Assembly (NCBI GenBank): GCA_963726245.1
Contig: CAVSBT010000015.1
Span: 32,001 to 96,000, forward strand
Length of the DNA stretch: 64,000 bases
Origin: an uncultured Chloroflexia bacterium
Lineage (GTDB): Bacteria; Chloroflexota; Dehalococcoidia; DSTF01; JALHUB01
Direction: 5' to 3'
The notes under the pieces were generated by a model. It saw only the letters and a list, made by a program, of their open reading frames with translations. It searched no databases and was not told the DNA's origin. A program made the translations under genes and the position numbers. This document shows, piece after piece, positions 9,179 to 39,032 of the stretch (positions within the stretch are counted from its first letter, which is position 1; each line of letters opens with the position of its first letter).

Positions 9179-9302
9179 CCCTCAGGCCGGCCGCGCTCCC
9201 TGGCCCGCACACATCGATAGACCCCCGGTCGCACCGCTGGCACCGCCATCTGCCGCCCTCCAAGCGGACCGCCCACTACCGTCCACGTCTTCCGTCAATC
9301 AA

Positions 9303-9354
9303 CCACAAAATATAGTGCCAGCCCTCTTGACAGATACTAGATGTAGTGTACACT
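9303..9354 (+). promoter_or_regulatory. Sigma70 promoter overlapped by tandem NrdR boxes
   Basis: ccacaaaatatagtgc (9303-9318) and atactagatgtagtgt (9334-9349), 31 bp apart, fit acaCwAtATaTwGtgt; TTGACA 9327-9332, TACACT 9349-9354. Confidence 0.85.
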
Positions 9355-9418
9355 AGCCGGTGCGGCTAGTGTACACCGGCCGTTGCAGCCATAGGTGTTA
9401 CGGCGAGCCAGGAAGAAC

Positions 9419-10063: not shown

Positions 10064-10104
10064 GGAGGCGAAGACCCGTTAGGGTCGGCGAAAAGGAGGT
10101 CGCG

Positions 10105-10509
10105 TTGCGCCAGCGGGGGAAGCTCTACAACGGGGACGGCGAGATGATCGCCGAGGGCTTCTGCGAGCTCGGCGAGGAGGGCTCGCAGGTCACCATGTGG
10201 CCCGCCCTGGAGAAAGGCCTCTTCGAGCGGGAGCGCGGGGTCTTGATATTGGAGCTCGAGGGTAGCGCCGCCCCCCTGCGCATCTCCGAGCGGCGCCTCC
10301 GGCTCAGGATCAACCCGACTCACGGCCCCCGCACCTTCATCTACCGCATGCGCATCGAGCAACCGCCTGCCGGCGACGTAACGCCCCCGGCCAGCGGAGA
10401 GGCCGAGGCTGTGCCTGAGCACCTCCTCCGCGCCGGCCCGCCTGCCGGCCAGCCGGACACGGGCGCCGGACAGGCAGCTTCGCCGGGAGGCCTATCGACA
10501 GCCCCCTAG
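10105..10509 (+). CDS. Hypothetical protein (beta-rich ~85 aa domain + Pro/Ala tail)
   Basis: AAGGAGGT RBS before TTG; genome-like codon usage; lies between nrdR and nrdJ. Confidence 0.7.
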   Translation: MRQRGKLYNGDGEMIAEGFCELGEEGSQVTMWPALEKGLFERERGVLILELEGSAAPLRISERRLRLRINPTHGPRTFIYRMRIEQPPAGDVTPPASGEAEAVPEHLLRAGPPAGQPDTGAGQAASPGGLSTAP

Positions 10510-10524
10510 TTAGAGGGAAACGCT

Positions 10525-10566
10525 GGGACACCGCCTGCCGCCCGGCGGGCGGTGTCCCTTGTTCTT
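10525..10566 (+). terminator. Intrinsic terminator-like hairpin before nrdJ-1
   Basis: gggacaccgcctgccg / cggcgggcggtgtccc stem (one G-U) followed by ttgttctt. Confidence 0.6.
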
Positions 10567-10628
10567 GAAGGCCCCGGGCGGGGTGAGAGCGCGAGCCAGA
10601 CTGACGACTAGGAAGGAAACCCGAGGCC

Positions 10629-23087: not shown

Positions 23088-23100
23088 CTCGCTCGATTCC

Positions 23101-23130
23101 TTGACACCCTAGCTGAGCTGCCCGTATCAT
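23101..23130 (+). promoter_or_regulatory. Sigma70 promoter for rny
   Basis: TTGACA-N18-TATCAT. Confidence 0.6.
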
Positions 23131-23232
23131 GAATCTGAAAATCGGTCCCGCCGGTGGCGGGTTCAACATTTGATGGATCAACCAAGACATAATCGAGACA
23201 AGGAGAACGCCTAAACAGAAAGAGAGGTTGCA

Positions 23233-24768
23233 ATGCCCGTAGCCATAGTCTTGGGCGTCGTCATGGGCGTCCTGGGGCTGGCGATCGGGGCTCTTCTCGG
23301 CAACACCATAAGACGGAGGATCGGCCAGGGGCGTTTAGAGGCAGCGGAAACAAATGCTGCCAAGATCCTCGCAGAAGCTCAGACCAGACAAAAGGAGATC
23401 CTTCTAGAGGCAAAAGAAGAGGCAATTCGACTGCGGGCCCAGGTTGAGGCCGAGCTCAAGGAGCGAAGAGCCGAAGTCCTGAAGCTGGAGCAGCGTGTTA
23501 CCCAGCGAGAAGAGAACCTGGATCGCAAGCTAGAGGCCCTGGACCGCCGCAATCAATCCGTCGACGAGAAGGAAAAGGAGTTAGCCAGCACCAGGGCAGA
23601 CCTAGATGAGCTGCGCAAGAAGCAGCTTGAGGAAATAGAAAGGATATCAGGCTTAACCAGCCAGGAGGCCCGTGGCATACTCCTGGCGGAGGTGGAGAAG
23701 GAGGTCCGGGACGACGCCAACCGCCGCGTTCGCGCCGTAGAGGCGGAGGTAAAAGAGGAAGGCGAGGCGCGCATCCGTGACACCCTGGCCACCGTCATGC
23801 AACGGTTGGCCACTGACGTTGTCGCCGAATCCACTGTCTCTGTAGTGCCCATCCCCAGCGATGACATGAAGGGCCGGATTATCGGTCGCGAGGGCCGCAA
23901 CATCCGCGCCCTCGAGGCCGCCACCGGCGTCGACCTCATAATCGACGACACTCCGGACGCCGTCACCCTCTCCGGCTTCGACCCGGTGCGACGGGAGATT
24001 GCCCGCGTCGCCCTCACCAAGCTGGTGACCGACGGGCGCATCCATCCCACGCGCATCGAAGAGGTGGTGGAGAAGGCCCGCCAGGAGGTGGAGGTAGGCA
24101 TCAAGGACGCCGGCGAGGAGGCGGCCATCGAGGCGGGCTGTCCCGGTTTTCACCCCGAGCTCCTGAAGACCCTGGGCCGCCTCAAGTTCCGCACTAGCTA
24201 CGGACAGAACCAGCTCATGCACGCCGTGGAGAGCGCCCACATCGCCGGCCTCCTCGCCGAGGAGATCGGCGCCGATGTCAACATCTGCCGCCGGGGCGCC
24301 CTTCTCCACGACCTGGGGAAGGCCATCGACCACGAGGTTGAGGGTACCCACGCCGTCATCGGCGCAGAGCTGGCCCGTCGATTCAGCGTCAGCCCGGCGG
24401 TGGTCCACTGCATCGCTGCTCACCACGAAGAGGAAGAGCCGAAAACGGTGGAGGCCGTTATCGTCCAGATCGCTGATGCCATCAGCGGCAGCCGCCCCGG
24501 GGCGCGCATGGAGACGCTGGAGCACTACATCAAGCGGCTCGAGGCGCTGGAGAGCCTGGCCATCGGCTTCGAGGGCGTCGAAAAGGCCTTCGCCATCCAG
24601 GCCGGCCGTGAGATCCGCATCATCGTCAAGCCCGAGGAAGTGGACGACCTGGCCTCGATGCGACTGGCCAGGGACATTAGTCGCAAGATCGAAGAGAGCC
24701 TGGAGTACCCCGGGCAGATCAAGGTGACCGTGGTCCGCGAGACGAGGGCCGTAGACTACGCCAAGTAG
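23233..24768 (+). CDS. rny: Ribonuclease Y
   Basis: N-terminal TM + coiled coil, KH motif [16 protein letters not shown] motif [31 protein letters not shown]. Confidence 0.98.
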
Positions 24769-24843
24769 ATAAGCGATGGGGAGCGGCGAGGTCCACAGAA
24801 GCGAGGATGGCCGCTCCTCATTGCATGTCCTAGAGGAGGCGCC

Positions 24844-25623
24844 GTGAAGGTGCTGATGGTGGGCGACGTGATGGGACGGCCCGGCCGGCGGGCTGTGGCT
24901 GCCCTCTTGCCCGGCCTGCGACAGGAACTGGGCGTGGACCTGACCATCTGCAACGGCGAGAACGCCGCCGCCGGCCGTGGCCTCACCCTGGCCACGTCGC
25001 GCGAGCTGTTCGACGCTGGGGTGGACGTCATCACCTCCGGCAATCATATCTGGGACCAGAAGGAGATCATCCCCTGGCTGGATGAGGACGCCCCCATCCT
25101 TCGCCCTCACAACTACCCTCCGGGGACGCCGGGGCGCGGCGTCATGACCTGCAATGGGCTGACCATTGTCAACCTCCAGGGCCGCACGTTCATGCTCGCC
25201 CTGGATTGCCCCTTTCGTGCCGCTGATGCTATCTTGAAGCAACTGCCGGCGAGGTCCGCTGTCTTCGTCGACCTGCACGCGGAAGCCACGAGCGAGAAGG
25301 TAGCCCTGGGCTGGTACCTGGACGGCCGCGTCTCCGCTGTCGTGGGCACCCACACGCACGTCGGCACCATCGATGCGCGCGTCCTGCCCAAGGGCACGGC
25401 CTTCGTTTGTGACGTGGGCATGGTGGGAGGCCGGGACTCTGTGATCGGCGACGACGTAGATTCGGTTCTCTCCCGCTTCCTTCATCAGCTCCCCCACCGT
25501 CTCACCGTCGCCGAGAACAGCCGCGTCCTCCAGTTCAACTCCGTCCTCGTCGATATCGACGAGGCCACCGGGCTGGCGCGCAAAATCGTGCGTGTGGATC
25601 GGGAGATAGAGCGCCGTGAGTAG
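24844..25623 (+). CDS. ymdB: YmdB/TIGR00282 metallophosphoesterase
   Basis: GDVMGRPG, NGENAAAG, ITSGNHIWD, DLHAEATSEK, VGTHTHV, DVGMVG. Confidence 0.92.
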   Translation: MKVLMVGDVMGRPGRRAVAALLPGLRQELGVDLTICNGENAAAGRGLTLATSRELFDAGVDVITSGNHIWDQKEIIPWLDEDAPILRPHNYPPGTPGRGVMTCNGLTIVNLQGRTFMLALDCPFRAADAILKQLPARSAVFVDLHAEATSEKVALGWYLDGRVSAVVGTHTHVGTIDARVLPKGTAFVCDVGMVGGRDSVIGDDVDSVLSRFLHQLPHRLTVAENSRVLQFNSVLVDIDEATGLARKIVRVDREIERRE

Positions 25624-26464
25624 CCGGGCCAATCTCCACACCCACAGTAACTGCTCCGACGGCGTCTTGAGCCCTGCGGCCCTGGTCGAACTGGCCGCCT
25701 CGCGCGGCGTCGAGATCATGGCCCTCACGGACCATGATTCGATGGAGGGTCTGCCCGAGGCCGCGCAGGCGGCGGCCCGGTATCCGGGCTTCACGCTCAT
25801 CCCTGGCGTGGAGATGAGCACCGACATCGCGGGCGGCGAGGTGCATGTGCTGGGCTACTTCCTGGACCCGAAGGACGCCCATCTCCAGGAGGAACTCGCC
25901 CGCCTACGCGACTCGCGGTGGGACCGCGGCCGTCGCATGGTAGAGAAGCTGCACGACCTGGGCGTGAACGTCAGTTGGGAGAGGGTGCAGGCGATCGCCG
26001 GTGGCGGGGCCGTCGGGCGCCCCCACGTGGCGCAGGCTCTGCTCGAGAAGGGGCACGTAGGCACCGTCCAGGAAGCGTTTGACCGCTACATCGGTCGCAA
26101 CGGCCCCGCCTACGCCGACCGCACCAAGATGACACCCGCCGAGGCCGTGGCCTTCCTTCAACAGAGGGGGGCTTTCCCGGTCTTGGCCCATCCCAGGGAG
26201 ACCGGGGACCTCGAAGACCTGCTGCTGGCTCTCCAGGAAGCCGGCCTGGGCGGCATGGAGGTCTACTACCAGGACTACGACGAGGCCAGTGTCGAACGCC
26301 TGCTGACGATAGCCCGCAGGCGTGGCCTGTTGCCCACGGGCGGCAGCGACTATCATGGCCTCGGCGGCGAGCACCAGCGTTTGCCCGGCGACATACCATT
26401 GCCCGACGAAGCCATCGACGCCTTCATGACCCTGGCCGAGAGATACGTCATCCACAGGGCCTGA
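25616..26464 (+). CDS. PHP-domain phosphoesterase (TrpH/YciV-like)
   Basis: LHTHSNCSDG, ALTDHD, PGVEMST, VHVLGY, GRPHVA, LAHP, GGSDYHG. Confidence 0.92.
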   Translation: MSSRANLHTHSNCSDGVLSPAALVELAASRGVEIMALTDHDSMEGLPEAAQAAARYPGFTLIPGVEMSTDIAGGEVHVLGYFLDPKDAHLQEELARLRDSRWDRGRRMVEKLHDLGVNVSWERVQAIAGGGAVGRPHVAQALLEKGHVGTVQEAFDRYIGRNGPAYADRTKMTPAEAVAFLQQRGAFPVLAHPRETGDLEDLLLALQEAGLGGMEVYYQDYDEASVERLLTIARRRGLLPTGGSDYHGLGGEHQRLPGDIPLPDEAIDAFMTLAERYVIHRA

Positions 26465-26485
26465 GGTTGGCCGTCCACCAGTCGT

Positions 26486-26968
26486 ATGCAGTGTGCCACC
26501 CACCCCTCGGTTGAGACCGAGCTGACCTGCAGTCGCTGCGGCAAGCCCATCTGTCCGCGATGCCTCGTGATCACGCCCGTGGGCGCCCGATGCCGTGAGT
26601 GCGCGCGATTACGGCGTCTGCCCACGTATCAACTGGGCGCTGCCTTCGTGATGCGCGGCCTGGGCGCCGCGGTGGCCGTAGGCGCTGCCGTGGGGGCTCT
26701 TTGGGGATTCCTCGTCCCATTCAACGTCGGCGTCTTCATAGGCCTCTTCCTGGGGCTGGGCCTGGGCTACGCCGTCGGCGAGTCAGTAAGCTGGGCATCC
26801 AACCGCAAGCGAGGTCCCACGCTTCAGGGAATGGCCGTGGTGGGAGTGCTGCTCGCCTACGCGGTCAGAAACTTGGTGGAGGGAGCCGGCGTCTTCTCGG
26901 CCAACGATGTCTTCGGCTACGTGGTGGTAGGCGTCGCCGTCTTCACAGCCATCGGACGCCTTCGCTAA
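26486..26968 (+). CDS. B-box zinc-finger membrane protein
   Basis: CATHP..ET.LTCSRCGKPICPRC..TPVGARCREC followed by four hydrophobic segments. Confidence 0.8.
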   Translation: MQCATHPSVETELTCSRCGKPICPRCLVITPVGARCRECARLRRLPTYQLGAAFVMRGLGAAVAVGAAVGALWGFLVPFNVGVFIGLFLGLGLGYAVGESVSWASNRKRGPTLQGMAVVGVLLAYAVRNLVEGAGVFSANDVFGYVVVGVAVFTAIGRLR

Positions 26969-26985
26969 GTGACGGGCGGCCCCTG

Positions 26986-27273
26986 CTAGCGGAGCACGAA
27001 GGAGATGATGACGACGAGGAGCATCGCACCGCCGCCGATGATGGCGATGCGCCGCAGTTCGCGCAGCACATAGCCGTAGTCGTAGATGCGCGCTTGGGGT
27101 GGCGTGGCGGTAGCCTGCACTATCGGTCGGCGAGGAGCGAAGGGCACCACCTTGGGCCTGGCCGCTCCGCCGGTCTCTGAAACAGGGGCAGCCGGCGCCA
27201 GCAGAGTGCGGCGGCGTGGTCTCTTTCGCGATACGGTTTGTGGCCTGGTGCGAGGGCGCGGTTTTCTTGGCAC
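26986..27273 (-). CDS. Small membrane protein, basic disordered N-terminus + C-terminal TM
   Basis: DYGYVLRELRRIAII...IISFVLR; TATAAT at 27315-27320 on the minus strand. Confidence 0.7.
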   Translation of the reverse strand: MPRKPRPRTRPQTVSRKRPRRRTLLAPAAPVSETGGAARPKVVPFAPRRPIVQATATPPQARIYDYGYVLRELRRIAIIGGGAMLLVVIISFVLR

Positions 27274-27368
27274 TTCATTCCTCGGGCCCGCAGTCGCGGG
27301 CCAAACTCGCCGCTATTATAGCCGCCCACCGAGCTAGCCACAACGACGGCGGGAGGCAGATCGATTCG

Positions 27369-27451: not shown

Positions 27452-27528
27452 GGCCCCGTGGTGTAGCGGTCTAACATGCCACCCTGTCACGGTGGAGATC
27501 GAGGGTTCGAATCCCTTCGGGGTCGCCA
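27452..27528 (+). tRNA. tRNA-Asp (GTC)
   Basis: Acceptor ggccccg/cggggtc, anticodon arm ccacc-ctGTCac-ggtgg, T-loop gttcgaatc, encoded CCA. Confidence 0.97.
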
Positions 27529-28253: not shown

Positions 28254-28583
28254 CTACGCCTTCGACTTATGCGAATGGGCAGGCAGCGTGGGTTTTCGCT
28301 GAGTGCGCCCCGTGCGCGCGGCCTGCCGCCTCACGACCGGCAAAGGACGATTCACGGCGACACTCATCATTCGTCCTTTCAGTTCCGCGCCCTTCAGGGA
28401 TTGCAGGGCGATAGCCGCAGCCCTGTCTTCAAGTTCAACAAGGGCGAAGCCGCGGGTGCGGCCGGCATGATCGCAGGCGACCCGCATTGAGCTGATCTCC
28501 CCGAAAACCGAGAAGACGGTCCGTAAGTCACTAGCTTTGGTCTTAGAGGATAGGTTTCCCACAAGTAGCGTGGTCACTGGCAT
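28254..28583 (-). CDS. RRM (RNP) RNA-binding protein
   Basis: RNP2 LLVGNL, RNP1 RGFALVEL, L.G.ELKGR.M.V; GAGGAGG RBS. Confidence 0.88.
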   Translation of the reverse strand: MPVTTLLVGNLSSKTKASDLRTVFSVFGEISSMRVACDHAGRTRGFALVELEDRAAAIALQSLKGAELKGRMMSVAVNRPLPVVRRQAARTGRTQRKPTLPAHSHKSKA

Positions 28584-28676
28584 TCCTCCTCTGCTGGGCG
28601 CGTTCAACCGTCGAGCCGTCGAAGCTCGCATCCGACGCCCTTATGAAGGGCTGTGTGCCAGGGTCAGCGGCTGAGT

Positions 28677-29000
28677 CTAGTAGCGGCTGCGAACAGGTGC
28701 GCGCTGGGCGTAGCACTCCCTGCAATAGACGGGCCGGTCACCCCGTGGTTCGAATGGGACCTCGGCGTTCTTGCCGCACTGGGCACAAACGGCAGTGTGC
28801 ATCTGGCGGGGGGACGAGCTGTAGCCATCCCCATAGCCACGGCCTTCGCCACGCTCTGACCTACGGGCGGCGCGACAACCGGAGCATCGCTTGGGCTCGT
28901 TGGTGAAGCCGCGGCTGGCGTGGTACTCCTGGTCCTCAGCCGAGAAGGTGAATTGGGTACCGCAATCAAGGCACGTTAGGGTTCTGTCTGTGTAAGACAC
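28677..29000 (-). CDS. Zinc-ribbon protein (zf-trcl-like + CxxC-x17-CxxC)
   Basis: DRTLTCLDCG..FTFSAEDQEYH..RGFTNEPKRCSGCR and AVCAQCGK.AEVPFEPRGDRPVYCREC. Confidence 0.9.
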   Translation of the reverse strand: MSYTDRTLTCLDCGTQFTFSAEDQEYHASRGFTNEPKRCSGCRAARRSERGEGRGYGDGYSSSPRQMHTAVCAQCGKNAEVPFEPRGDRPVYCRECYAQRAPVRSRY

Positions 29001-29287
29001 TCGACGACCTCCTTCAGGGGTCTGCTATTCCGCGTCGTCGAGTGCAAGACAAAATGGGGCTCTGAGTTGCAGATCGAAGACAGGGACTCGTTCTTATGGC
29101 TACTCTAGCACACTTGGCCCCTGCTGTCACGCAAGAGCGCCAAGCCCACCAACTTCTGGTAGCCTGAATCAATTGTCGGTAATTCTTGGGAGAATCACGA
29201 GGGGGATGCCTTCAACGGTCCTGTCTTGGGAGCCTCGCAGGCCGCCAGCACCGGCAGAGGCCGCGAGCACCCTTCGCCGGCGGAGTC

Positions 29288-29872
29288 CTATAGCGACGCC
29301 CCGCAAGTCATGCAGTAGCGCCAGTTGGGGCGAATTGGGGAGCCGCAGCGAGGGCACTGCCCTCCCGAGGCTACGGTCGCGGGCGCGGGCCGGCCCTGGG
29401 CCGGGGCCTGCGTGGGGCGGACGGCGACACGGCGGACCAGCAGGAGGACGCTAGCGGCAACAGCGAAGGCAGTCGCCGCATGGAGGGCCGCGAAGCTGAG
29501 AATAATCCCGTCGACAGATTCGCGTACTCCCATGACCTGGAAGGCGGCGATGGCCGCGGCGGGCAGCGCCAGGTGCCAGCCTGCCGCCCTGCAGAGGACG
29601 CTGTCCCCTCGCCGGTAGAGGGGGATCTTCGTGCCGAGGAAGGCTCCCGCCAGGGCGCCACCGGCCAGGAGGCCCCAGGTCGCCTCCTCCTTCAGGTCGA
29701 TGTCAACGATCAGGATGAGGATCACCAGGCTGAGTGCCGCTCCCGCCCCGGCCATGAGGGTGCCGAGCGAGGAGAAGGGGCGCTCCCTTTGGAGTCTCAC
29801 CACGGTCCACAGGGCGCTGATTAGGACGAGGGCCGCCCCTGCGATGGCAACACCCCGATAGAAGTCGTCCAT
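29288..29872 (-). CDS. Cassette gene C: five-TM membrane protein with C-terminal double-CxxC zinc ribbon
   Basis: Hydrophobic segments followed by CPRCG...WRYCMTCGASL. Confidence 0.75.
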   Translation of the reverse strand: MDDFYRGVAIAGAALVLISALWTVVRLQRERPFSSLGTLMAGAGAALSLVILILIVDIDLKEEATWGLLAGGALAGAFLGTKIPLYRRGDSVLCRAAGWHLALPAAAIAAFQVMGVRESVDGIILSFAALHAATAFAVAASVLLLVRRVAVRPTQAPAQGRPAPATVASGGQCPRCGSPIRPNWRYCMTCGASL

Positions 29873-29876
29873 ACCC

Positions 29877-30575
29877 TCAGCCTTCCAGCGTGGCGCCGCA
29901 GCCGGTGCAGAAGCGCTGCTGCGGCTGCGCCTGCCTGCCGCAGCTCGGGCAGAAGCGCGATGGAGCGGCGGCGGGCGCAGGAGCGGCCGGAGCCGGTGGA
30001 GGCGCGGGTGCCGGCGTCACTGTCGCGGCAGGGGCCGAGGCAGGAGTATCGGCCTCGCGGCCCGTCTTGGCGACCCGAGGCAAAAGCGCCCGCCTGCTCA
30101 ACGATGGCTTGCACCTCAGACAGAACCTCTGCACTCGCGGACAGCCCTTCCAGCTCCCAGGCGATGACTGCGGATGACCTTCCTCAGTCCTCGTCAAGGC
30201 GGTAAGGAAGCTCTGTTTGTTGAGACCGTCCTCGTGCAATATGATCACGACGACTTCTGCCGGCTTCCCATCTGGTCGAGATGGGTGACATTCAACGAGA
30301 CCTGAACGGCTGGCGGCCACCCGCTCCAGCAGCATGGCGATCCGCTGCGGCCCCTCTGGGTCCGCGGCCATCTCCGGTTGAACGGGCAGATCGAAGGTGC
30401 AGGCCAGGAGGAGGCGGCTGGGCTGCTGGCCGGAGGCCCGCACGCTGACGCTGAGCGAAGGCTCGCCCGGGAGAGAGACGGTGCAGGCAAGGCCCGCCTC
30501 GTCGTCCTGTTCGACAACGACTGAGAGCGATTCCTCCTGGCACCAGCGCTCGATTCTGTCTCCGAGAACCGTCAT
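29877..30575 (-). CDS. Cassette gene B2: possible T3SS-chaperone/DUF2299-like domain + Pro/Ala linker + zinc ribbon; internal frameshifts
   Basis: Paralog of 31972..32651; LHEDGLNKQSFLTAL; ends RFCPSCG..QQRFCTGCGATLEG. Confidence 0.7.
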   Translation of the reverse strand: MTVLGDRIERWCQEESLSVVVEQDDEAGLACTVSLPGEPSLSVSVRASGQQPSRLLLACTFDLPVQPEMAADPEGPQRIAMLLERVAASRSGLVECHPSRPDGKPAEVVVIILHEDGLNKQSFLTALTRTEEGHPQSSPGSWKGCPRVQRFCLRCKPSLSRRALLPRVAKTGREADTPASAPAATVTPAPAPPPAPAAPAPAAAPSRFCPSCGRQAQPQQRFCTGCGATLEG

Positions 30576-30624
30576 CGCGTTCAGTGCTCCCTCGCCGGAC
30601 AAGGGCCTGTCTATATCCGGCGTG

Positions 30625-31864
30625 CTACTGGCCCTGACCGGTGCTTCTCGCTTCCTCGGCCGCATGCGTTCGCTGCGAACGGAGGTCGATCCACCCGTTT
30701 TGTGGTCGCTTCTCTAAGCGCATGTTTGCCTCGTCATAGGCGGCCCCTGTTGAGTCCAATTTCTACCCTGGACCCTGCCCTGCAGAGTGCCGCGTTGGCC
30801 TTCGTCTGCGACTAAGTGGCGTCCTTCAGCTCCGTCCATCCCTGGGCCGGCCCGACTAACGTGAGACCAGCGCACGGTGAGAGTCCCCGAAGCCCAGAAA
30901 CGTGAGTTGAGAGCGCCTGTCTTGACGCCAGCCCAAGCCGCCTCCGCTGCGGCTGCTGCCCCAGGGGCCCAGTCGTGTCGCGCTCGCGGCTGCATAAGCG
31001 CCGAGCGCGCTCGCAACCGCCGCCGCCCCGATGCAGATACCGGAGATGGCCCACTGCCGGCTTGGCGATGTCTGCGATTTGGAGGTTGGCCTGAGCTCTC
31101 GCGATTTGCTCCCCCAGGCGGGCCAGTTGCCAGTTTGCCCTCTCGGCCGCCATTTCCATGGCCCTGCGTCTCTGATAGAGCGACTCGCGGGCCTCCCGCG
31201 CTGCCTCCAGCTCACGCAGCGCCTCCTCGAACTGCCGGTCCAGGTCGCGCACGTGGCCCAGTGCGGCTCGAGAAGCCGGATTCGCTGAGATCCCGCTGCC
31301 CACGATGGTCGACCCGGCCAGGAGGGTCAGGGCGGCGCCACCCAGCAGTGCGCCCGTCGCAGCGAGATTGCCAGGGGATGCCCCTGACCCACCCGCAAGA
31401 AGCGCCTTGCTGGCATCGCGTATCGCCTTCTCTACCGGATTACCAGTCGAACCGCCGCTGCTTGCCGCACCACTGCCGCCCGTCACCGCGCCAGCGCTGC
31501 TCTCCTGCTGCTGAATTGCTCGTACTCCTCCGGCGTGAGGCACTTCTCAAGGAAGGCGAAGGACGTGTAGCCGGGGCAACCCGGAGGTCCTTTGCCGTCT
31601 GTCGTCTGCCGATGGTCGTAGACGCCAAGGTAGCCCTCGATGCAAAGACTGTCACCGACGTAGCCGATCTTCCCGTTCGCGCGGGAGGGTCTCGCGGTCC
31701 TGTACGCAGCAGATACCGGACATGCGCTCCCAGTGAAAGCCCGTCGGGCAGTTCTCCCTCGCCACCTGAGCCGACGATGAGTTCCCTGCGACGAGCCAAA
31801 GGAGGGCCGCCAGGGTGAAGCTCACACCTACTACGAACGTGGTCAGCAGCAGTCTCCGCAGCAT
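30625..31864 (-). CDS. Cassette gene A2: signal peptide, 6-Cys domain, TM, coiled coil/hydrophobic/coiled coil; frameshifted
   Basis: Paralog of 32697..33878 along its length: CPTGFHWERMSGICCVQD...SLCIEGY...PPGCPGYTSFAFLEKC; C-terminus reconstructed across frames to TAG at 30625. Confidence 0.7.
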
Positions 31865-31907
31865 GGCGCCGAGAGCATACCATCGCTGGACGCGAGCCGC
31901 CAGAGCG
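31770..31907. repeat. Direct repeat (about 138 bp) of 33784..33921 covering promoter and signal peptide of gene A
   Basis: About 6 mismatches by eye; contains TGgTATGCT 9 nt before the ATG on the minus strand. Confidence 0.9.
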
Positions 31908-31914
31908 GGCACCG

Positions 31915-31967
31915 GTTGCGACCGAGGCGGCCCCGCCGGTGGCGACAACCCGATAGAAGGCGTCCGT
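31915..31967 (-). pseudogene. 5' remnant of cassette gene C with ATG changed to ACG
   Basis: acggacgccttctatcgggttgtcgccaccggcggggccgcc versus atggacgacttctatcggggtgttgccatcgcaggggcggcc at 29872. Confidence 0.7.
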
Positions 31968-31971
31968 ACCT

Positions 31972-32651
31972 TCAGCCTTCCAGCGTCGCGCCGCAGCCGG
32001 TGCAGAAGCGTTGCTGGGGCTTGCTCTGCTTCCCGCAGCTCGGGCAGAAGCGCGATTCGGCGGCGGAAGCGGGTGCGGGACCGGCCGGGGCGGGTGGAGC
32101 CGCGGGGCGGCGCTGGCTGCGCTTCCACAGGCGCAGCAGCAGCCTGCGCCAAATCCGAGGCGAAAGCGCCGGTCTCCTCCGCAAGCGCTCGCACGCCAGA
32201 CACGATGTCTGCGGCCACAGATATCCCTCAATCTCCCACCCAATCACACGGACAACCTTCCTCACCTCCTCGAGCGCGGTGAGGAGGTTCTGTTTGCTGA
32301 CCCCGTCCGCGTGCAGCGTGACCGCCACCTCCGCCGCCAACTTGCCCCTTGTGCCACTGGGCGACACTCAACGAGTGCCGAGCGGCTGGCCGCCACCCGC
32401 TCCAGAAGTGCTGCTATCCGTTGTGGTCCCTCCGGGTCAGCGGCCATTTCAGCCGACAGAGACAGCTCAAAGTTGCACCCCAGCACGACCCGGGCTGGTT
32501 GGGGACCGGTGGCGTGCACTGCGATAGAGAGTGGAGGATCGCCCGAAAGGGAGACAACGCAGGCTAGAGCACTTTCCTCGTCCCGTTCAACCACGACCGA
32601 CAGGGATTCCTCCTGACTCCAGCGGCTGATGCTGTCACCCAGGAGCGTCAT
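31972..32651 (-). CDS. Cassette gene B1: possible chaperone-like domain + zinc ribbon; frameshifted
   Basis: MTLLGDSISRWSQEESLSVVVE...EMAADPEGPQRIA.LLERVAASRS.LVEC...LHADGVSKQNLLTALEEVRK...RFCPSCG..QQRFCTGCGATLEG. Confidence 0.72.
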
Positions 32652-32696
32652 CGTCGCTAATCCTTTCCGGCAGAGGGGCCTAGCCCGCCCGACCTT

Positions 32697-33878
32697 CTAC
32701 GCGCCTTCGCGGGCCCGCTGCAGTTCTTCGTTCACTTGCACCTGTTGTGAGCGAATCTCATTTACGCGGGCCAGGGCTTCATCTTGCCGCCTGGTGGCCT
32801 CTTCGTATTCGGCGGGGATCCGGTTCAGCTCACCGCGAATCTGGCTCTGGAGCTGCGCAGTTCTCGCCTTGGCATCCGAGAAACCGTCCCCTATATTCTT
32901 CCATACGTCAGACTGGATGCTCCTCAAGCCCCCAGCCACGGCCGCCGCCAAGGCGGCGCAGAGCCGAAGAGCAGCCGATCTGATTGACAGTGCGGTAACC
33001 TCCATTGCCTTCGCTTCCAGACCCAGGCCCGCCAGAACGCCTATTTGAGGGATAATCGCCGGCGCGGCCAAAAGCCCTGCCAGCCCTGCCAACGCGGCGC
33101 TGATGGAGAACATCGCTCTACTCGTGTTCAGGCTCCCACGGTAGGCCTCAATTCGGGCCATTATGCCGTCCAGGCGTGTCTGCTGCGACTGGAACGCGCC
33201 AGCCAATGCCTCCAGCACTTTGCGTTCCTGCTCGAGTGCTTCGCGGTCCTGATGCGCTTTGTCCAGGGCTTGCGCCGCATCCGAGTACTGGCGGTCCAAC
33301 GCCGCAAGGCGCTCCGTCAGCTGCTTGATTCGCGCATTCGCCGCGCCGGGGCCCGATAGGCGGCCGCGCGCCAGCGCCGCCGCGCCTGCCGCTGCGCCCA
33401 TGGTTCCCGTTATGGCGCCCGCCGTCGCCAGGTCCCGATTCGAGGGTCCCCCACCGCCCTCATAGACCGCCTCGCTGGCGTCCCGTATGACGCCACCGCC
33501 GCCGAGGGTGCTCCCTCCGGGCACGGCGGCGTCTGCACCACCGTTCTTCTTAGTGCATTCCGTGAGAAAAGCAAAGGAGGTGTAATTGGGGCAGCCCGGA
33601 GGGCCCTTGCCATCTGTCGTCGGCCGGTGTACGTAGACTCCCGCATAACCGTCGTCGCAGAGGCTGTTGCCGGTGTAGCCGATGTGCCCAAATCGGGGAA
33701 TGGTGTCCTCATCCTGCACGCAACATTGCCCGGACATGCGCTCCCAGTGGAAGTCTGCCGGGCAGTTCTTCTTCTCCACCTGGGCCGACGATGAGTTCCC
33801 TGCGACGAGCCAAAGGAGGGTCGCCAGGGTGAAGCTCACACCTACTACGAACGTGGTCAGCAGCAGCCTTCGGAGCAT
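32697..33878 (-). CDS. Cassette gene A1: signal peptide, 6-Cys domain, Gly linker, TM, coiled coil, hydrophobic hairpin, coiled coil
   Basis: Intact 393-aa ORF; architecture read from residue composition. Confidence 0.8.
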   Translation of the reverse strand: MLRRLLLTTFVVGVSFTLATLLWLVAGNSSSAQVEKKNCPADFHWERMSGQCCVQDEDTIPRFGHIGYTGNSLCDDGYAGVYVHRPTTDGKGPPGCPNYTSFAFLTECTKKNGGADAAVPGGSTLGGGGVIRDASEAVYEGGGGPSNRDLATAGAITGTMGAAAGAAALARGRLSGPGAANARIKQLTERLAALDRQYSDAAQALDKAHQDREALEQERKVLEALAGAFQSQQTRLDGIMARIEAYRGSLNTSRAMFSISAALAGLAGLLAAPAIIPQIGVLAGLGLEAKAMEVTALSIRSAALRLCAALAAAVAGGLRSIQSDVWKNIGDGFSDAKARTAQLQSQIRGELNRIPAEYEEATRRQDEALARVNEIRSQQVQVNEELQRAREGA

Positions 33879-34019
33879 GGCGTCGAGAGCATACCATCGC
33901 CGGACGCGAGCCGCCAGAGCGAATACGGATCGAGAACGTCGCAGTGCATCTGCAATGTGTGTTGCACGTTGCGGGCCGGTCGCCCATCATGCTGGCGAGA
34001 GTCTGACAGGAGAACGGCC

Positions 34020-34784
34020 ATGCCGTACTGCCCCAACTGCGGCTCCGAGACCGAAGCCGGCGCTGCCTTCTGCGGCTCCTGCGGTGCGCAACTGGAGGGT
34101 GAAGCGCCGCCACCTCCGCCTAGCCCTCCGGCACGTCAGGGATCACGGTGGGCTGGCTTTGCCGGGCTGCTTGCCTTGATATTGCTGGTGGCGGGCGGGG
34201 TCGCCCTCTACGATCAGGTTGGCCGGGACGGAGAGTGGCGTCATCGCCTGTTCGGCGGCGAGGAAGACCAGAGAGTCGTGGCAGGGCCGTCTCCCACGAT
34301 GTCGGCTGCCCCCACGCCCACGGCCGCCGTGCCGTCGCCCACTGCATCGGCGCTTCCCGAGCCCACCAGGGCCCCCGCTCCCACCGCGACCGCCAGGCCC
34401 ACCACGCCCCCTGAGCCCCCGCCGCGACCCACGCCCACGACACCCTCCGAGGCCACACCCACCGCCGTTCAGGCGCCAACCGCCGTCCCGCCTGCCCCAG
34501 GCTACACCACCCCGGAGGAGGCCATTGGCGCCTATCTCGAGCAGTACGGGGTGTCCTATGCCGGTGATTGCGCGTCAGCCGACCTGCAAACGGACGTTGG
34601 GTCTTTCTGCTCCACCATGTGGGAGAAGACGGACACAGGCCTCGTATACCTTGCCGGCCTGGCGTTCTCGGAGCCCGAGTCCTGGTTGCTGCTGGCCGAC
34701 CAGGGCGGAGGTAGCGGCTGGCTGGTCGTGGATCAAGCCGAGGTTGTGCCTGGACCCCAAGGCCTCGTGTCGCCCTGGCCCTGA
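34020..34784 (+). CDS. Gene D: N-terminal zinc ribbon, single TM, Pro/Thr linker, extracellular 2-Cys domain
   Basis: AGGAGA RBS; MPYCPNCG......FCGSCG; FAGLLALILLVAGGVALY; PT-rich stretch; YAGDC...GSFCS. Confidence 0.8.
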   Translation: MPYCPNCGSETEAGAAFCGSCGAQLEGEAPPPPPSPPARQGSRWAGFAGLLALILLVAGGVALYDQVGRDGEWRHRLFGGEEDQRVVAGPSPTMSAAPTPTAAVPSPTASALPEPTRAPAPTATARPTTPPEPPPRPTPTTPSEATPTAVQAPTAVPPAPGYTTPEEAIGAYLEQYGVSYAGDCASADLQTDVGSFCSTMWEKTDTGLVYLAGLAFSEPESWLLLADQGGGSGWLVVDQAEVVPGPQGLVSPWP

Positions 34785-35033
34785 ACACCAGAGGTTGCTG
34801 GGCGCCCCAGCGTAGACTGCTTCTGGCATCACCCTCAAGATGCCCCGCCTCCCCTGGCGGGTCGCAGATTCCCCAAGGCTGGCAGTTCCTCGATATTGAT
34901 CGCGCCCTGTGAGTTGACGCCCCTGGGGGCGAGCGGTAAGCTTGATTTATAGCATGCAATGCATCCCGCTCGTACAGGGCTGCTCGCGGTCGCTGTCTGA
35001 TTCTCACCCGCAGATACGCAGAGAGACGACAAC

Positions 35034-36113
35034 ATGAAATCAGGGAATGGTACCCAGCACGGGATCAAAGAAAGGGTGGCTGGCTCCGGACAGGTTCTGG
35101 ACCGCCCGTCACACGATGTGGCCGGCCAGCACTCAGAGAGCGCTCGTAGCGTGGCGGCGCCCAACGCGGCCGAACCAGCCGCCATCCGGACACATGGTCT
35201 GGTGAAGCGCTACCCGCCGGACACATTGGCCGTCGACGGGCTTGATCTCGAGGTCGGGCGCGGAGAGTTCTTCGGGCTCCTCGGGCCCAACGGAGCAGGC
35301 AAGACGACGACCATCGGCATGCTTACCACCAGGGTCATCCCCACGAGCGGCGAGGCGGCAGTGGCTGGGCTCGACGTTCGGACCCACGCCGTGGACGTCA
35401 AGCGGATGATCGGGGTCGTGACACAGGATAACACGCTTGACAGGCGTCTGACGGCCTGGGAGAACCTGTACTACCACGGCCGGTACTTCGGGCTCAGCCG
35501 CTCTGTAGCCCGCGATGAGGCCGAGCGGTCGCTCCGCATGGTTCGCTTGGAGGACCGGGCACGCTACTTCGTCGACCAGCTTTCGGGTGGCATGCAGCAG
35601 CGATTGCTCATCGGGCGGGCGCTGGTTCACCGGCCGCAGGTGCTGTTCCTGGACGAGCCAACAGCAGGGATCGATCCGCAGGGGCGTCTGGCGCTCTGGG
35701 AGATCCTGCAGGGCCTTCACAATGACGGGCAGACAATACTGCTCACAACCCACTACATGGAGGAAGCCGACGAGCTCTGTCAGCGCGTAGCGATCATGGA
35801 TCACGGACGAATTCTCGCGATGGGTTCCCCGGAGGAGTTGAGGCGTTCGGTCGGAGCGGAGACGGTCCTGAGCTTTCAGTTTGAGCCGGTAACGGATCAC
35901 TTGGTGGCGACGCTGGAAGCTCTCCCGGGTGTGAAGGGATTGGAGAGCGGATCAGGCGGACTGAGGGTGTATGCCGACGGTAACCACGGGCTGTTACCGC
36001 AAGTGGTCCAGACAATCCTGGCCGAGGGCGTGACGCTGCGGGACGTGTCTGTCAGTACGCCAACCCTGGAAACCGTGTTCATAAAGCTGACCGGAAGGGA
36101 GCTGCGGGAATGA
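35034..36113 (+). CDS. ABC transporter ATP-binding subunit (DrrA/NodI-like); start uncertain
   Basis: GPNGAGKTT, LSGGMQQR, LFLDEPT, LLTTHYMEEA, C-terminal TLETVFIKLTG. Confidence 0.93.
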   Translation: MKSGNGTQHGIKERVAGSGQVLDRPSHDVAGQHSESARSVAAPNAAEPAAIRTHGLVKRYPPDTLAVDGLDLEVGRGEFFGLLGPNGAGKTTTIGMLTTRVIPTSGEAAVAGLDVRTHAVDVKRMIGVVTQDNTLDRRLTAWENLYYHGRYFGLSRSVARDEAERSLRMVRLEDRARYFVDQLSGGMQQRLLIGRALVHRPQVLFLDEPTAGIDPQGRLALWEILQGLHNDGQTILLTTHYMEEADELCQRVAIMDHGRILAMGSPEELRRSVGAETVLSFQFEPVTDHLVATLEALPGVKGLESGSGGLRVYADGNHGLLPQVVQTILAEGVTLRDVSVSTPTLETVFIKLTGRELRE

Positions 36114-36934
36114 CGGCAGAGGCTACAGCAGTTGCGCTGCCGCTCCAGCGGCGTCGACCTTGGTTGGCATGGGCGCAGACGTTCTTCGCCCTCATGGAGC
36201 GAGACGCGCGGGTGTTGCGGCGCGACATTGTTCCCTTCCTCTTGAGGACAGTGATGCAGCCGCTGATGTTTGTCTTCGTCTTCGCATACCTCCTTCCCAA
36301 GATTGGGGAAGGGTCAAGCTCGTTCGGCAACATCCTGGTTCCCGGCCTCATCGCTTCCGCTCTCTTTTTCCAGGGCATCCAGGCTGTTGCCCTCCCTTTG
36401 GTGCAGGAGTTCAGTCAAACCAAGGAGATCGAGGACCGGGTAATGGCGCCCCTTCCGGTGGCGGGGGTGGCTATAGAGAAGATCTTCTTCGCATTACTGC
36501 AGGCGCTGCTTTCGGCGCTGGTGGTGTTCCCGCTCGTGTACATTATTCCGCTGCAGAGGCCCGACCTTCATGTCGACCCCGTCGTTCTCGTGACCGTGCT
36601 GCCTCTAGCCGCGCTCGTCTCCGCATCGCTTGGGCTCCTCATCGGAACCGTGGCTGGTCCGCGTCAAATCCCGCTCGTGTTCTCGGTAATCGTTCTGCCC
36701 GTAGTCTTCCTGGGCGCGGTCTACTACCCTTGGTCGCAACTTGAATCCCTCCGCTGGCTCCAGGTGCTCATCCTGCTCAACCCGCTCGTGTACATGAGCG
36801 AGGGGCTTCGGGGAGCGCTCACCCCCCAATACGGGCACATGAACTACTTGGCGGTGTACCTCGGGCTGATGGTCGGTGCTGCTGTCTGCACCTACCTCAG
36901 TGTCCGGCGCTTCATCAACCGCGTGCAGTCCTGA
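36110..36934 (+). CDS. ABC-2 type permease
   Basis: Six hydrophobic segments, LNPLVYMSEGLR; ATGA overlap with the ATPase. Confidence 0.9.
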   Translation: MTAEATAVALPLQRRRPWLAWAQTFFALMERDARVLRRDIVPFLLRTVMQPLMFVFVFAYLLPKIGEGSSSFGNILVPGLIASALFFQGIQAVALPLVQEFSQTKEIEDRVMAPLPVAGVAIEKIFFALLQALLSALVVFPLVYIIPLQRPDLHVDPVVLVTVLPLAALVSASLGLLIGTVAGPRQIPLVFSVIVLPVVFLGAVYYPWSQLESLRWLQVLILLNPLVYMSEGLRGALTPQYGHMNYLAVYLGLMVGAAVCTYLSVRRFINRVQS

Positions 36935-36966
36935 CTTCGGTAGATCCCGCGCGAGCCACGACTCGG

Positions 36967-37695
36967 TTAACGCAGGCCTTTCATCCACTCGTGGGCAAAC
37001 TGCTCCGGTTGCCCGGTTGTTACCGCTTCCAGCACCCTTTCAGCCATGAACTCGGCTGAATCAGGGGGTCGAAGAGCGCTATCTCCTCCCTCTTCGTATT
37101 GGGTGTCAGGGCCGTCTTTGATTGTTCTCTCTTCAAAATCAGTCAGTGTCATGTACGGGTACACGACGCTCACCACAATGTTGTCTTCCTGCAGTTCTTC
37201 GCGGGCAATGAGGCTAAGCGCATTTAGCGCGCGCTTTACAGAGGAGTATGGGCTCATATTCGGCAGGTGCATGAGTGATGCGCCAGAGCTGATGTTCACA
37301 ATCGTGCCACCGCCCTGCTTTCTCATTGCTGGGATGACAGCCTGCATGGCAACTAACGGTCCGACGACATCCAGTTCGAAAAGCCGGCGGTACTTGACGA
37401 TGTCTATATACTCCAGAGGCGCATCATATCCTTGGCCGGCGCAATTAACGAGAATATCAACGCGGCCGTAGTGCTTAAGCACTTCCCCCACCATCTTCTT
37501 GATGTCCTTCTCTTGACTCATGTCGGCCGGAGCTACAAAGGAGTTCGGAAGCTCTCTCGAGAGCTCGATGAGCTTGTCGACTGATCGCGCCACCAGAGCC
37601 ACCCTGGCGCCGCGTTGCGTCAAGAGTCTGGCGGTTGCGAGACCAATGCCGGACGAGGCTCCGGTAACTATCGCGACTTTGTCTTTGACAATCAT
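36967..37695 (-). CDS. Short-chain dehydrogenase/reductase, low GC
   Basis: VTGASSGIG, DILVNCAG, IVNISS, YSSVK catalytic motif. Confidence 0.92.
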   Translation of the reverse strand: MIVKDKVAIVTGASSGIGLATARLLTQRGARVALVARSVDKLIELSRELPNSFVAPADMSQEKDIKKMVGEVLKHYGRVDILVNCAGQGYDAPLEYIDIVKYRRLFELDVVGPLVAMQAVIPAMRKQGGGTIVNISSGASLMHLPNMSPYSSVKRALNALSLIAREELQEDNIVVSVVYPYMTLTDFEERTIKDGPDTQYEEGGDSALRPPDSAEFMAERVLEAVTTGQPEQFAHEWMKGLR

Positions 37696-37794
37696 ACAAA
37701 ACACCACCACAGAAAGTTCGAATCAGATTCTCGATTCGGTGGCCTCACGATCCGCGAGGATAATACATCAACGCCTCTAGCGAGAAACAGCATG

Positions 37795-37855
37795 AAAGAA
37801 AAGCGACCCGCCCCGCGGCAAACGTCATCTCCCCAACCGCTTGCCGGGGGCGGGC
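37795..37855 (-). terminator. Intrinsic terminator of the dcw/ftsZ transcript
   Basis: Minus strand gcccgcccccggcaagcg...cgtttgccgcggggcgggt then cgcttttcttt. Confidence 0.7.
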
Positions 37856-37965
37856 CTGAGCGACCCCTCTTCTGGAAGGGTGCTATCCCGGTCCGTCCGG
37901 GGTCAATTTGACTGCTCGGCTAGACAGACACCTCCTCTCTTTGGCTTCTTCATGGCACACCTTCC

Positions 37966-39032
37966 TCAGCGCGCCGCGACCGTGCGGCGCAAGAAGGTGG
38001 GCAGCTCGGTGTCGGCCACAGCGGCCATGGCTTCGGGCCGGATGGTGCGGAAGCGTTCCTCTTGCGCCTCCCGCATCTCGTGCGTCACGAAGCCGGTGGC
38101 GATGACGGTCACCTTCACCTCGTCGCCCAGGTCGGGGTCGGTGGCGGTGCCGAAGATGATCTCCGCGTCCGGGTCCACGATCTCGGCGATGACCTGGGCC
38201 GCCATGTTCAGCTCGTGGAGGCCCAGGTTGCGGGCGCCGGTGATGTTGAAGAGAACGCCTCGGGCGCCGGCGATGCTGACATCCAGCAGCGGGCTGCTGA
38301 TCGCCGCCTTGGTGGCCTCGACGGCCCGGTTCTCGCCGCTGGCCCGGCCGATGGCCAGCAGGGCCTGGCCCGCCTCGCTCATGATCTTGCGCACGTCGGC
38401 GAAGTCCAGGTTGATCTCGCCGGGCAGCGTGATGATCTCGGCGATGCCCTGGATGCCCTGGCGAAGGACGTCGTCGGCGGTGCGGAACGCCTCGTCCAGC
38501 GTCGTCTTGACGTCGCAAACGGCGAGGAGGCGGTCGTTGGGGATGACGATAAGCGTATCGACCTTGCTGCGGAGCTGGTTGATGCCCTCCTCGGCCTGGT
38601 GGCGGCGCTTCGAGCCTTCGAAGCCAAAGGGCTTGGTGACGACGCCGATGGTGAGGGCGCCCGTCTCCCGGGCTATCTCGGCCACGACGGGTGCGGCGCC
38701 GGTGCCGGTGCCGCCGCCCATTCCGGCCGTAACGAAGACCATCTCCGCGCCGCGAGATGGCGTCGTAGATCTCGTCGCGGCTCTCCTCGGCGGCGCGCTG
38801 CCCCTTGCCGGGGTCGCCGCCTGCCCCGAGACCCTTCGTCAGCTTCTCGCCGATGCGGATGCGCACGTGCGCCTCGGCGCCGGCCAGGGCCTGGGCGTCG
38901 GAGTTCACGGCCACGAGTTGGACGCCCGGCGCCCGTTCGCCCATCATGCGCGTTAACAGCGTTGCAGCCGCCGCCACCGACGCCGACCACCTTGATGGGT
39001 GGGAGTCCCTCCAGGTTCGATTTAGCGGTCAA
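37966..39032 (-). CDS. ftsZ: Cell division protein FtsZ, frameshifts near 38955 and 38750
   Basis: [51 protein letters not shown]-terminal ELPTFLRR; AGGAGG RBS before TTG. Confidence 0.97.

Follow-up and report, generated by a model that had tools for sequence, protein, structure and literature searches.

The window analysed here is a 64,000-nucleotide stretch of contig CAVSBT010000015.1 from an uncultured Chloroflexia bacterium, known from a metagenome-assembled genome of 46 contigs that is 83% complete, and positions 29288-34784 of this window hold the group of genes considered below, designated A, B, C and D. As judged from the arrangement of these genes in related loci, A-B-C, often accompanied by a divergent D, is a real, conserved and undescribed membrane gene cassette of one uncultured Chloroflexia family. 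The open reading frame (ORF) list of the window gives the order, within about 5.5 kb, as D on the plus strand followed by A1-B1-(C remnant)-A2-B2-C, all on the minus strand.

Gene order and tandem duplication

D (34020-34784, plus strand) is intact and encodes an N-terminal zinc ribbon, one transmembrane segment (TM), a Pro/Thr-rich linker and an extracytoplasmic domain of about 95 amino acids (aa) in which two Cys are invariant in the alignment; its start is the ATG at 34020, correcting a GTG at 33957. About 140 nt (33879-34019) lie between D and the divergent A1 (32697-33878, minus strand), which is intact and encodes 393 aa, and the A-proximal part of this intergenic region recurs upstream of A2. 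B1 (31972-32651, minus strand) combines an N-terminal domain resembling YbjN and the chaperones of type III secretion systems (T3SS) with a C-terminal zinc ribbon and is split over at least two frames. It is followed by the C remnant (31907-31967, minus strand), 61 nt corresponding to the first ~20 codons of C, with ACG where ATG is expected. A2 (about 30625-31864, minus strand) is a second, different A allele, of the type seen in protein P0004 and locus L023, with ~7 frame changes relative to intact orthologs; B2 (29877-30575, minus strand) is an open ORF, partly out of frame, for a YbjN/T3SS-chaperone-like domain, a helix, a Pro/Ala linker and a zinc ribbon; and C (29288-29872, minus strand) is intact, its 194 aa comprising five hydrophobic segments and a C-terminal zinc ribbon.

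The tandem unit measures ~2.05 kb and is outlined by four repeat families of 125-296 nt each, 71-85% identical and spaced by 2014-2095 nt. One of these (D2; 33694-33938 versus 31680-31924, 85% identical) spans the sequence upstream of A, and another (D3; 31907-32066 versus 29812-29971, 82% identical) covers the C remnant, which, joined as it is to A-upstream sequence, is on this evidence the junction of a tandem duplication. The layout proposed in the initial annotation, namely A1-B1-C remnant-A2-B2-C on the minus strand with a divergent D and a duplication, is thus supported by both the ORF coordinates and the ~2.05 kb repeat.

A promoter and terminator scan of 28900-35100 found no consensus sigma-70 promoter in the gap between D and A1 and no terminator after C. 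The sequence upstream of both A starts (31876-31900 and 33890-33914, minus strand) is conserved and carries TGGTATGCT ~15 nt before the ATG; gene callers applied to other samples lengthen A by ~40 codons through the TGGTATGCT region (P0006 and P0007). This element may be the extended -10 element of a leaderless mRNA, of a kind not flagged by the consensus promoter scan.

Distribution and linkage

The carriers of the cassette are a small group of uncultured soil and sediment Chloroflexia. A was found in three of 41 related genomes, all of one family, and in 2 of 401 genomes sampled across the class; it is absent from G001, a genome of the same genus that is 89% complete. A word-index protein search returned 24 A-family clusters among 5.8 billion.

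Linkage was assessed in 40 loci, 38 of them from metagenomes and two from genomes, which fall into a close clade of 31 and a distant clade of 9. In the close clade B follows A in every locus with more than 200 nt downstream (24/24); the other 7 contigs stop within 164 nt of A, and in one of these, L025, B begins before the contig ends. In all 17 close-clade loci that extend past B, C comes next, and the order A-B-C is also kept in two other genera of the family. D lies divergently upstream in 16 of the 29 loci that could be tested. The outcome that would have spoken against a cassette, homologs scattered with no conserved linkage, is not seen: A-B-C linkage is kept wherever testable and D frequently goes with it. 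That the ORFs cluster by chance was considered and rejected, the cassette being conserved in related loci.

The more distant clade is, on present sequences, A-C without B. Its A proteins are 530-740 aa long, and C directly follows A in 5 of 6 testable loci, the match in the sixth being weak (E 2.3e-4). The B profile found the B N-terminal domain in no distant-clade locus, and the idea that B is fused into the long distant-clade A proteins was rejected, given that the profile finds no such domain there. A different protein with two zinc ribbons lies downstream of C in L007, L031 and L034. Two loci, L022 and L027, share the order ftsA-ftsZ, D, A-B-C, nrdR, and L027 also has an FtsQ-like fragment before ftsA (genes identified by inspection of their translations); in the window D and ftsZ are separated by no more than an ABC transporter pair and a short-chain dehydrogenase/reductase (SDR) gene.

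Protein A and its Cys-rich domain

A1 begins with a signal-like N-terminus, which is followed by a Cys-rich beta domain (residues 39-108, with 6 Cys; DNA 33528-33776), a Gly-rich linker with an IRDASEA motif, a weak TM, a helix, a hairpin and a second helix. By hydropathy, a stretch at residues 252-321 corresponds to the Gly/Ala-rich hairpin between helices 180-250 and 322-390. The AlphaFold2 model has an overall predicted local distance difference test score (pLDDT) of 68; the all-beta Cys domain (residues 40-112) reaches pLDDT 83-94 and helices 180-250 and 322-390 are confident, the hydrophobic stretches being of low confidence. In every type of A the signal-like N-terminus and Cys domain precede a TM, a ~70-aa helix, the hydrophobic Gly/Ala-rich hairpin and a second long helix.

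A carries, on the outside of the cell, a small beta domain held by disulfides. Cys52 and Cys96 are jointly lost in all 6 distant-clade sequences and jointly kept in the other 22 of 28, a pattern consistent with a disulfide and with an extracellular position. Hydropathy and the positive-inside rule predict that this extracellular domain leads into the TM and that the helix/Gly-Ala hairpin/helix module is cytoplasmic. When the full-length A1 model was run against the PDB with Foldseek, no match reached E <= 0.001 and only generic coiled coils came up (Smc, the RipA N-domain, chemoreceptors and Tc-toxin helices), and a profile of the Cys domain run against PDB sequences returned 3 matches, the best at E 0.14, and no relative. 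Among 1.84 billion proteins the same profile matched 101 cluster representatives at E <= 0.001 and, at the stricter E <= 1e-30, 24; the representatives mostly carry the domain at residues 35-115 behind a signal-like segment. A scan of viral contigs with the domain matched 28 pattern stretches, with no relative among them.

PASTA-type PknB proteins are receptor Ser/Thr kinases of monoderms with extracellular sensor domains, and one relative of the Cys domain has just such a setting. In the distant-clade locus L047, which has no cassette, a 466-aa Hanks-type Ser/Thr kinase (P0039; 4458-5858, plus strand; Pkinase E 1.7e-57) continues into a TM, a linker and then a C-terminal A-type Cys domain, which there fills the position of the extracellular sensor. 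Weaker relatives of the domain bear GH43_C2/ConA-like or cohesin and dockerin domains. Given its occurrence on the extracellular side of a Ser/Thr kinase and at the start of secreted proteins, the Cys domain is an extracellular binding or sensing module. Unlike the receptor kinases, A has no kinase or other catalytic domain, and its Cys domain is not a PASTA domain and has neither a Pfam model nor a sequence relative in the PDB.

Three further proteins (P0077, P0078 and P0081; 539-866 aa) have five or six hydrophobic segments ahead of a variant of the Cys domain, with a TM and a lengthy helical region after it, and look like fusions of a polytopic membrane domain to an A-like protein. A fusion of C to A was considered for them and rejected, the C profile having no match to their N-terminal part.

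Protein B

The AlphaFold2 model of B was computed from the L023 ortholog, whose N-terminal domain is 76% identical to that of the window, and has a pLDDT of 87. In it an alpha/beta domain leads into a helix of 52 residues (123-174), which a disordered Pro/Ala linker connects to the zinc ribbon; its secondary-structure elements run in the order H-E-E-E-E-H-H-E-E-H, as in the fold of YbjN and the class I T3SS chaperones (alpha-beta-beta-beta-(beta)-alpha-beta-beta-alpha over about 120-140 residues). Foldseek matches in the PDB include 3cxj (E 4.9e-5), YbjN 6vu7 (1.7e-4), AmyR (2.9e-4), ExsC (9e-4) and SycN/YscB (1.4e-3), with TM-scores normalised to the target of 0.60-0.70. The likeness to T3SS chaperones suspected from the sequence is therefore upheld by the model and its structural matches, and B is a cytoplasmic protein of the YbjN/T3SS-chaperone fold with a 52-residue helix and a zinc ribbon.

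The ~120-residue N-terminal domain of B shares its alpha-beta fold with YbjN/AmyR and class I T3SS chaperones (PDB 6vu7, 5fr7, 3kxy and 1xkp; PMC5398634). B differs from these proteins in having no Pfam-level match, in carrying the additional helix, Pro/Ala linker and zinc ribbon, and in having no T3SS genes alongside. The Pfam scan gave no YbjN match to B and only DUF2299, at E 0.03 and 14.5 bits against a 22.8-bit cut-off. Neither the cassette proteins nor the inspected neighbours showed any T3SS component, no genome-wide T3SS search having been made. A complex prediction with the cytoplasmic part of the L023 A protein (190-406) and B residues 1-176 scored 0.13 and 0.01 against a mark of 0.32, which speaks neither for nor against binding.

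Zinc ribbons and proteins C and D

A double-CxxC ribbon had been read in four proteins of the locus, and it is present in B1, B2, C and D. The Pfam model Zn_Ribbon_1 (PF13240) scores 30.4 bits in C and 30.7 bits in D, above its 25-bit cut-off; in B2 (22.8 bits) and B1 (21.0 bits) it falls under the cut-off, both CxxC pairs being present nonetheless. The motifs lie at 34029-34085 in D, 31990-32046 in B1, 29895-29951 in B2 and 29300-29356 in C. When all six frames of the whole 2.68 Mb genome were searched, CxxCG-x6-11-[FYHW]CxxCG occurred 12 times, 4 of these within the cassette as against 0.025 expected per 5.5 kb, with two of the four being copies of each other. Hydropathy gives C five hydrophobic segments and D one TM, and together with the positive-inside rule it predicts that the zinc ribbons of C and D are on the cytoplasmic face.

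C is the best conserved of the four proteins, its full-length identity to the C proteins of L022, L023, L027 and L028 being 84-86%. A word-index search with its residues 1-155 returned 54 cluster representatives, all of them 106-340 aa long. Full-length identity of D to its counterparts in L021, L022, L025, L027 and L033 is 58-68%, and a word-index protein search with its ectodomain found 12 clusters among 5.8 billion. The ectodomain is modular: in the same genome it also ends a secreted trypsin-like protease ORF of at least 583 aa (G000 contig C17, 117293-117502, minus strand; L063), and more copies occur in G000 (C27), G003 and G010. Its profile gave 0 matches to PDB sequences at E <= 10, and the ESM Atlas held no usable match and no model for it. 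A D homolog of 315 aa in L029 (3059-4006, minus strand) has two tandem copies of the ectodomain.

Exchange of the central module

Close strains differ sharply in the middle of the cassette. Between L027 and L022 identity is 93.2% over 1420 nt comprising D and the 5' portion of A as far as the Cys-domain end, and 94.0% over 1030 nt that begin shortly ahead of the B zinc ribbon, take in C and extend past it, with no BLASTN match over the ~1430 nt between these conserved flanks; L022 and L023 show the same mosaic pattern. Across 14 loci, at 96-99% identity of C, the cytoplasmic part of A is 30-34% and the N-terminal part of B (B-N) 26-53% identical. Clustering resolves three A-cytoplasmic types (25 sequences) and two B-N types (24 sequences), which are concordant in all 20 loci having both. 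The segment encoding the A-cytoplasmic and B N-terminal parts is swapped as one unit between close strains, a feature newly described here, and the tandem pair of the window consists of two different type-I alleles joined through conserved sequences. Such an allele swap between near-identical strains is a population-level signal of selection for diversity in the cytoplasmic module.

Integrity of the reading frames

A1, C and D align over their full length with their relatives, A1 being 75% identical to P0002 over 100% of its length. A2 matches the intact 402-aa protein P0004 piecewise, the frame changing ~7 times; B1 has its ends on ORFs 32262-32651 and 31972-32367 and its helix segment in a third frame (ORF 31652-32218); and in B2 roughly residues 127-180 are out of frame by comparison with 20 homologs, though the ORF is open. 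The architectures that the initial annotation gave to A, B, C and D agree with hydropathy, Pfam and AlphaFold2, but its view of gene integrity has to be corrected for A2, B1 and B2, and its advice on polishing the assembly was well judged.

The frameshifts in A2, B1 and B2 are probably flaws of the assembly rather than biology, a view that draws on the contigs of three independent sequencing runs (X1, X3 and X4), in which the indels are missing, and on the nearby ftsZ, which is also frameshifted. At the 1-nt indels at 30170 (B2), 30584 and 31055 the contigs of X1, X3 and X4 are concordant against the window, and at those at 30811/30813/30817 and 30969/30972 two runs are; no run contained more than 0.17 of the sampled words, and the stretches without contig coverage (most of 32065-33975 in X1 and X3) are uninformative. 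ftsZ (37883-38977, minus strand) is split into two frames by one extra base at 38755 relative to G001, where it is continuous. True decay, in which tandem gain of a second allele was followed by conversion of A2, B1 and B2 to pseudogenes, leaving D, A1 and C, is the less probable account. It is favoured, at the expense of assembly error, by the distribution of ~12 frame-breaking indels, which all fall in A2, B1 and B2 and spare A1, C and D of similar total length, and by the location of the indels outside homopolymers; a 4.26 kb syntenic alignment with G001 (23097-27348) also has only 6 gap openings. The frameshifted pieces nevertheless stay highly identical to intact orthologs, with long near-identical stretches to P0004, which would be unexpected in old pseudogenes, and decay would not be looked for in ftsZ, a gene expected to be essential. 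Moreover, the broken region is the exact segment that differs between co-occurring strains, where a mixed-strain consensus could be garbled.

Relation to known systems and possible function

Searches of Pfam, NCBIfam, PADLOC and PHROGs matched A, B, C and D to no enzyme, ATPase, DNA-binding domain, defence model or phage family, in keeping with the earlier statement that none of them has a recognisable enzyme motif. The Pfam matches in the cassette are zinc ribbons only, plus coiled-coil noise in A; PADLOC-DB 2.0 gave only weak coiled-coil or low-complexity matches, to SMC-like proteins and similar, at E >= 9e-5, and NCBIfam and PHROGs gave coiled-coil, low-complexity or zinc-ribbon noise only. 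No literature linking YbjN with a zinc ribbon was found, and nothing on this cassette among the papers listed.

The closest parallels are in the phage-shock-like envelope-stress systems, under which PMC11237479 treats neighbourhoods with CesT/Tir-type chaperones and PspA as well as the ydjFGH-type operon of B. subtilis, and for which its authors propose a role in the assembly of sub-membrane complexes upon envelope cues. In those neighbourhoods a chaperone-fold protein is encoded beside a membrane-associated long-helix protein, as it is in the cassette; zinc ribbons are found on membrane partners, to which D, with its one ribbon, one TM and small extracytoplasmic domain, is comparable; and an enzyme is lacking in both. 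The cassette differs from them in having no PspA/IM30, Band-7, TPM or AAA+ protein, in the TM anchor and extracellular Cys-rich domain of A, and in the zinc ribbon borne by B itself. The resemblance is one of architecture only.

By this analogy the cassette may encode an envelope-sensing, non-enzymatic sub-membrane scaffold, analogous and not homologous to the CesT/Tir-coiled-coil-zinc-ribbon neighbourhoods, a reading to which a probability of about 0.4 can be attached. The ectodomains of A and D would read an extracellular cue and pass it to a non-enzymatic sub-membrane assembly, in which B would act as chaperone or adaptor for the helical-hydrophobic module of A and the three zinc ribbons would gather B, C and D at the inner face of the membrane.

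Several observations weigh against such a scaffold. PspA/IM30 (PF04012) was found neither in A1, A2, B, C and D (E <= 0.1) nor in 43 members of the A family (E <= 0.001), nor in the 83%-complete genome, the corresponding control search being positive in 9 of 14 known genomes; Pfam likewise found no Band-7, TPM, AAA+ or transcription factor in the cassette. The PspA/Band-7 parallel of the initial annotation, which extends to the chaperone-fold neighbour and the zinc ribbons, is no more than an analogy. A, C and D match no known family, so the proposed mechanism leans on architecture and analogy. D is missing upstream in 13 of the 29 testable loci (at least 1000 nt upstream), and in G003 its ortholog is on another contig. 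The 20/20 concordance of A and B types is expected from adjacency alone in related loci and reflects co-inheritance, not necessarily contact. The tandem form is bridged by no independent contig; contigs of X3 and X4 join 31879 to 33958 and 31908 to 33934, and a single-copy form, with D beside the A2 type, therefore exists elsewhere. If the indels discussed above are real, the genome is left without an intact B.

The strongest competing explanation, itself unlikely, is a conflict-type system serving phage defence or programmed membrane damage, in which the A hairpin would be a latent membrane-permeabilising effector, masked by B and released by a cue at the ectodomains of A and D, and allele swapping would reflect an arms race. 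Unrelated central modules between near-identical flanks are typical of loci under diversifying selection, and strains with 93-94% identical flanks carry just such modules here, while the three unrelated A-cytoplasmic types all keep the plan of helix, hydrophobic Gly-Ala hairpin and helix. T3SS class I chaperones mask membrane-localisation regions of effectors, and B has their fold; with no enzyme present, an output at the level of the membrane is plausible. Against this explanation, matches in PADLOC and PHROGs do not exceed noise and no relative occurs on viral contigs, the neighbours in relatives are ftsQ/ftsA/ftsZ and nrdR and not defence genes, and the predicted locations, cytoplasmic for what varies and extracellular for what is conserved, are opposite to those in most receptor arms races.

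A more specific form of this idea, somewhat less likely again, is a polymorphic receptor-gated membrane effector, in which the conserved ectodomain sensor of A and D would control a cytoplasmic helix/glycine-alanine hairpin effector held in check by the zinc-ribbon-tethered YbjN-fold protein B, with alleles exchanged via the conserved flanks and stackable in tandem. If true, it would be a conflict or self/non-self system without a described counterpart.

A role as an accessory of division or envelope growth, that is, as a lineage-specific membrane scaffold beside FtsZ comparable to the coiled-coil membrane proteins of DivIVA or SepF type whose genes follow ftsZ in other monoderms, seems improbable. 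The order ftsA-ftsZ, D, A-B-C, nrdR in L022 and L027, the small number of genes between D and ftsZ in the window, and the label 'DivIVA' that one source gives to the family member P0021 all point towards it. The ftsZ neighbourhood is, however, confined to close relatives, with other neighbours in L007 and L008; 43 A proteins have no DivIVA or other division match in Pfam at E <= 0.001; and G001, which lacks A, has other DNA after its ftsZ, A being present in only 3 of the 41 related genomes. Least credible of all is a polymorphic toxin-immunity array, in which A would have a conserved N-terminus and a variable toxin at its C-terminus, B would be the variable, cognate immunity protein and the A1-B1/A2-B2 tandem would represent 'orphan' modules, for although the cassette resembles polymorphic toxin and contact-dependent inhibition loci, which carry orphan C-terminal toxin-immunity modules, in its conserved 5' part, swapped 3' part and next gene with conserved sequence beyond, and in a second tandem module joined through retained conserved sequence, Pfam and NCBIfam found no toxin domain and no secretion or delivery gene in it, its variable part comes after a TM flanked by positive residues and has a predicted location in the cytoplasm of the producer, its three variable types have one architecture and not different toxin folds, and the B zinc ribbon and the whole of C are conserved and not cognate-variable.

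The interest of the cassette, for which an envelope-sensing scaffold remains the preferred reading, lies partly in the generality of its components. Zinc-ribbon-tipped membrane proteins and YbjN-fold proteins are very common in monoderms, with function almost entirely unassigned, and the cassette is a compact, strictly linked set in which three proteins share the same ribbon, offering a small testable model for ribbons and YbjN-like domains at the membrane. It also adds three families without Pfam models, namely the Cys domain of A, the 5-TM domain of C and the ectodomain of D. The narrow range, 3 of 41 related genomes and 2 of 401 in the class sample, limits the impact for now.

Genomic surroundings

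The proposal that the cassette is carried on an island finds no support here. Its guanine-plus-cytosine (GC) content of 0.65-0.66 compares with 0.58-0.72 across the window, and in relatives the cassette sits between ftsZ and nrdR. No integrase, transposase or other mobility gene was noticed among the ORFs of 26-38 kb, only some of which were scanned against Pfam, and a tRNA-Asp gene lies 1.8 kb from C with three genes between, so that none of the usual marks of an island, deviant composition, mobility genes or tRNA insertion, is seen.

Synteny with G001 (contigs C61 and C146) ends after ~27350 and resumes at ~37797. The DNA of G001 past ftsZ matches window positions 9269-10755 instead, and a rearrangement between the two genomes is therefore indicated. 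On the ftsZ side, GC is 0.584 in 36001-38000, over a gene that looks by eye like a short-chain dehydrogenase (36967-37710) and has the ABC transporter and ftsZ on either side; neither this low-GC stretch nor the ABC transporter is found in the ftsZ-D interval of L022 and L027.

On the other side, beside C, a 107-aa protein with two treble-clef zinc fingers (PF13451, E 3.8e-19; PF23477, E 3.4e-20) is encoded at 28677-29000 on the minus strand, and its DNA is 72-74% identical to three places on other G001 contigs. Beyond it lie an ORF for an RNA-binding protein of the RNA recognition motif type (28254-28631, named by eye) and the tRNA-Asp gene (27452-27528). Further on comes one more small zinc-finger membrane protein (26486-26968, plus strand), 160 aa long, whose N-terminus resembles a B-box zinc finger (PF00643, E 6.4e-4, below the cut-off) and leads into hydrophobic segments.

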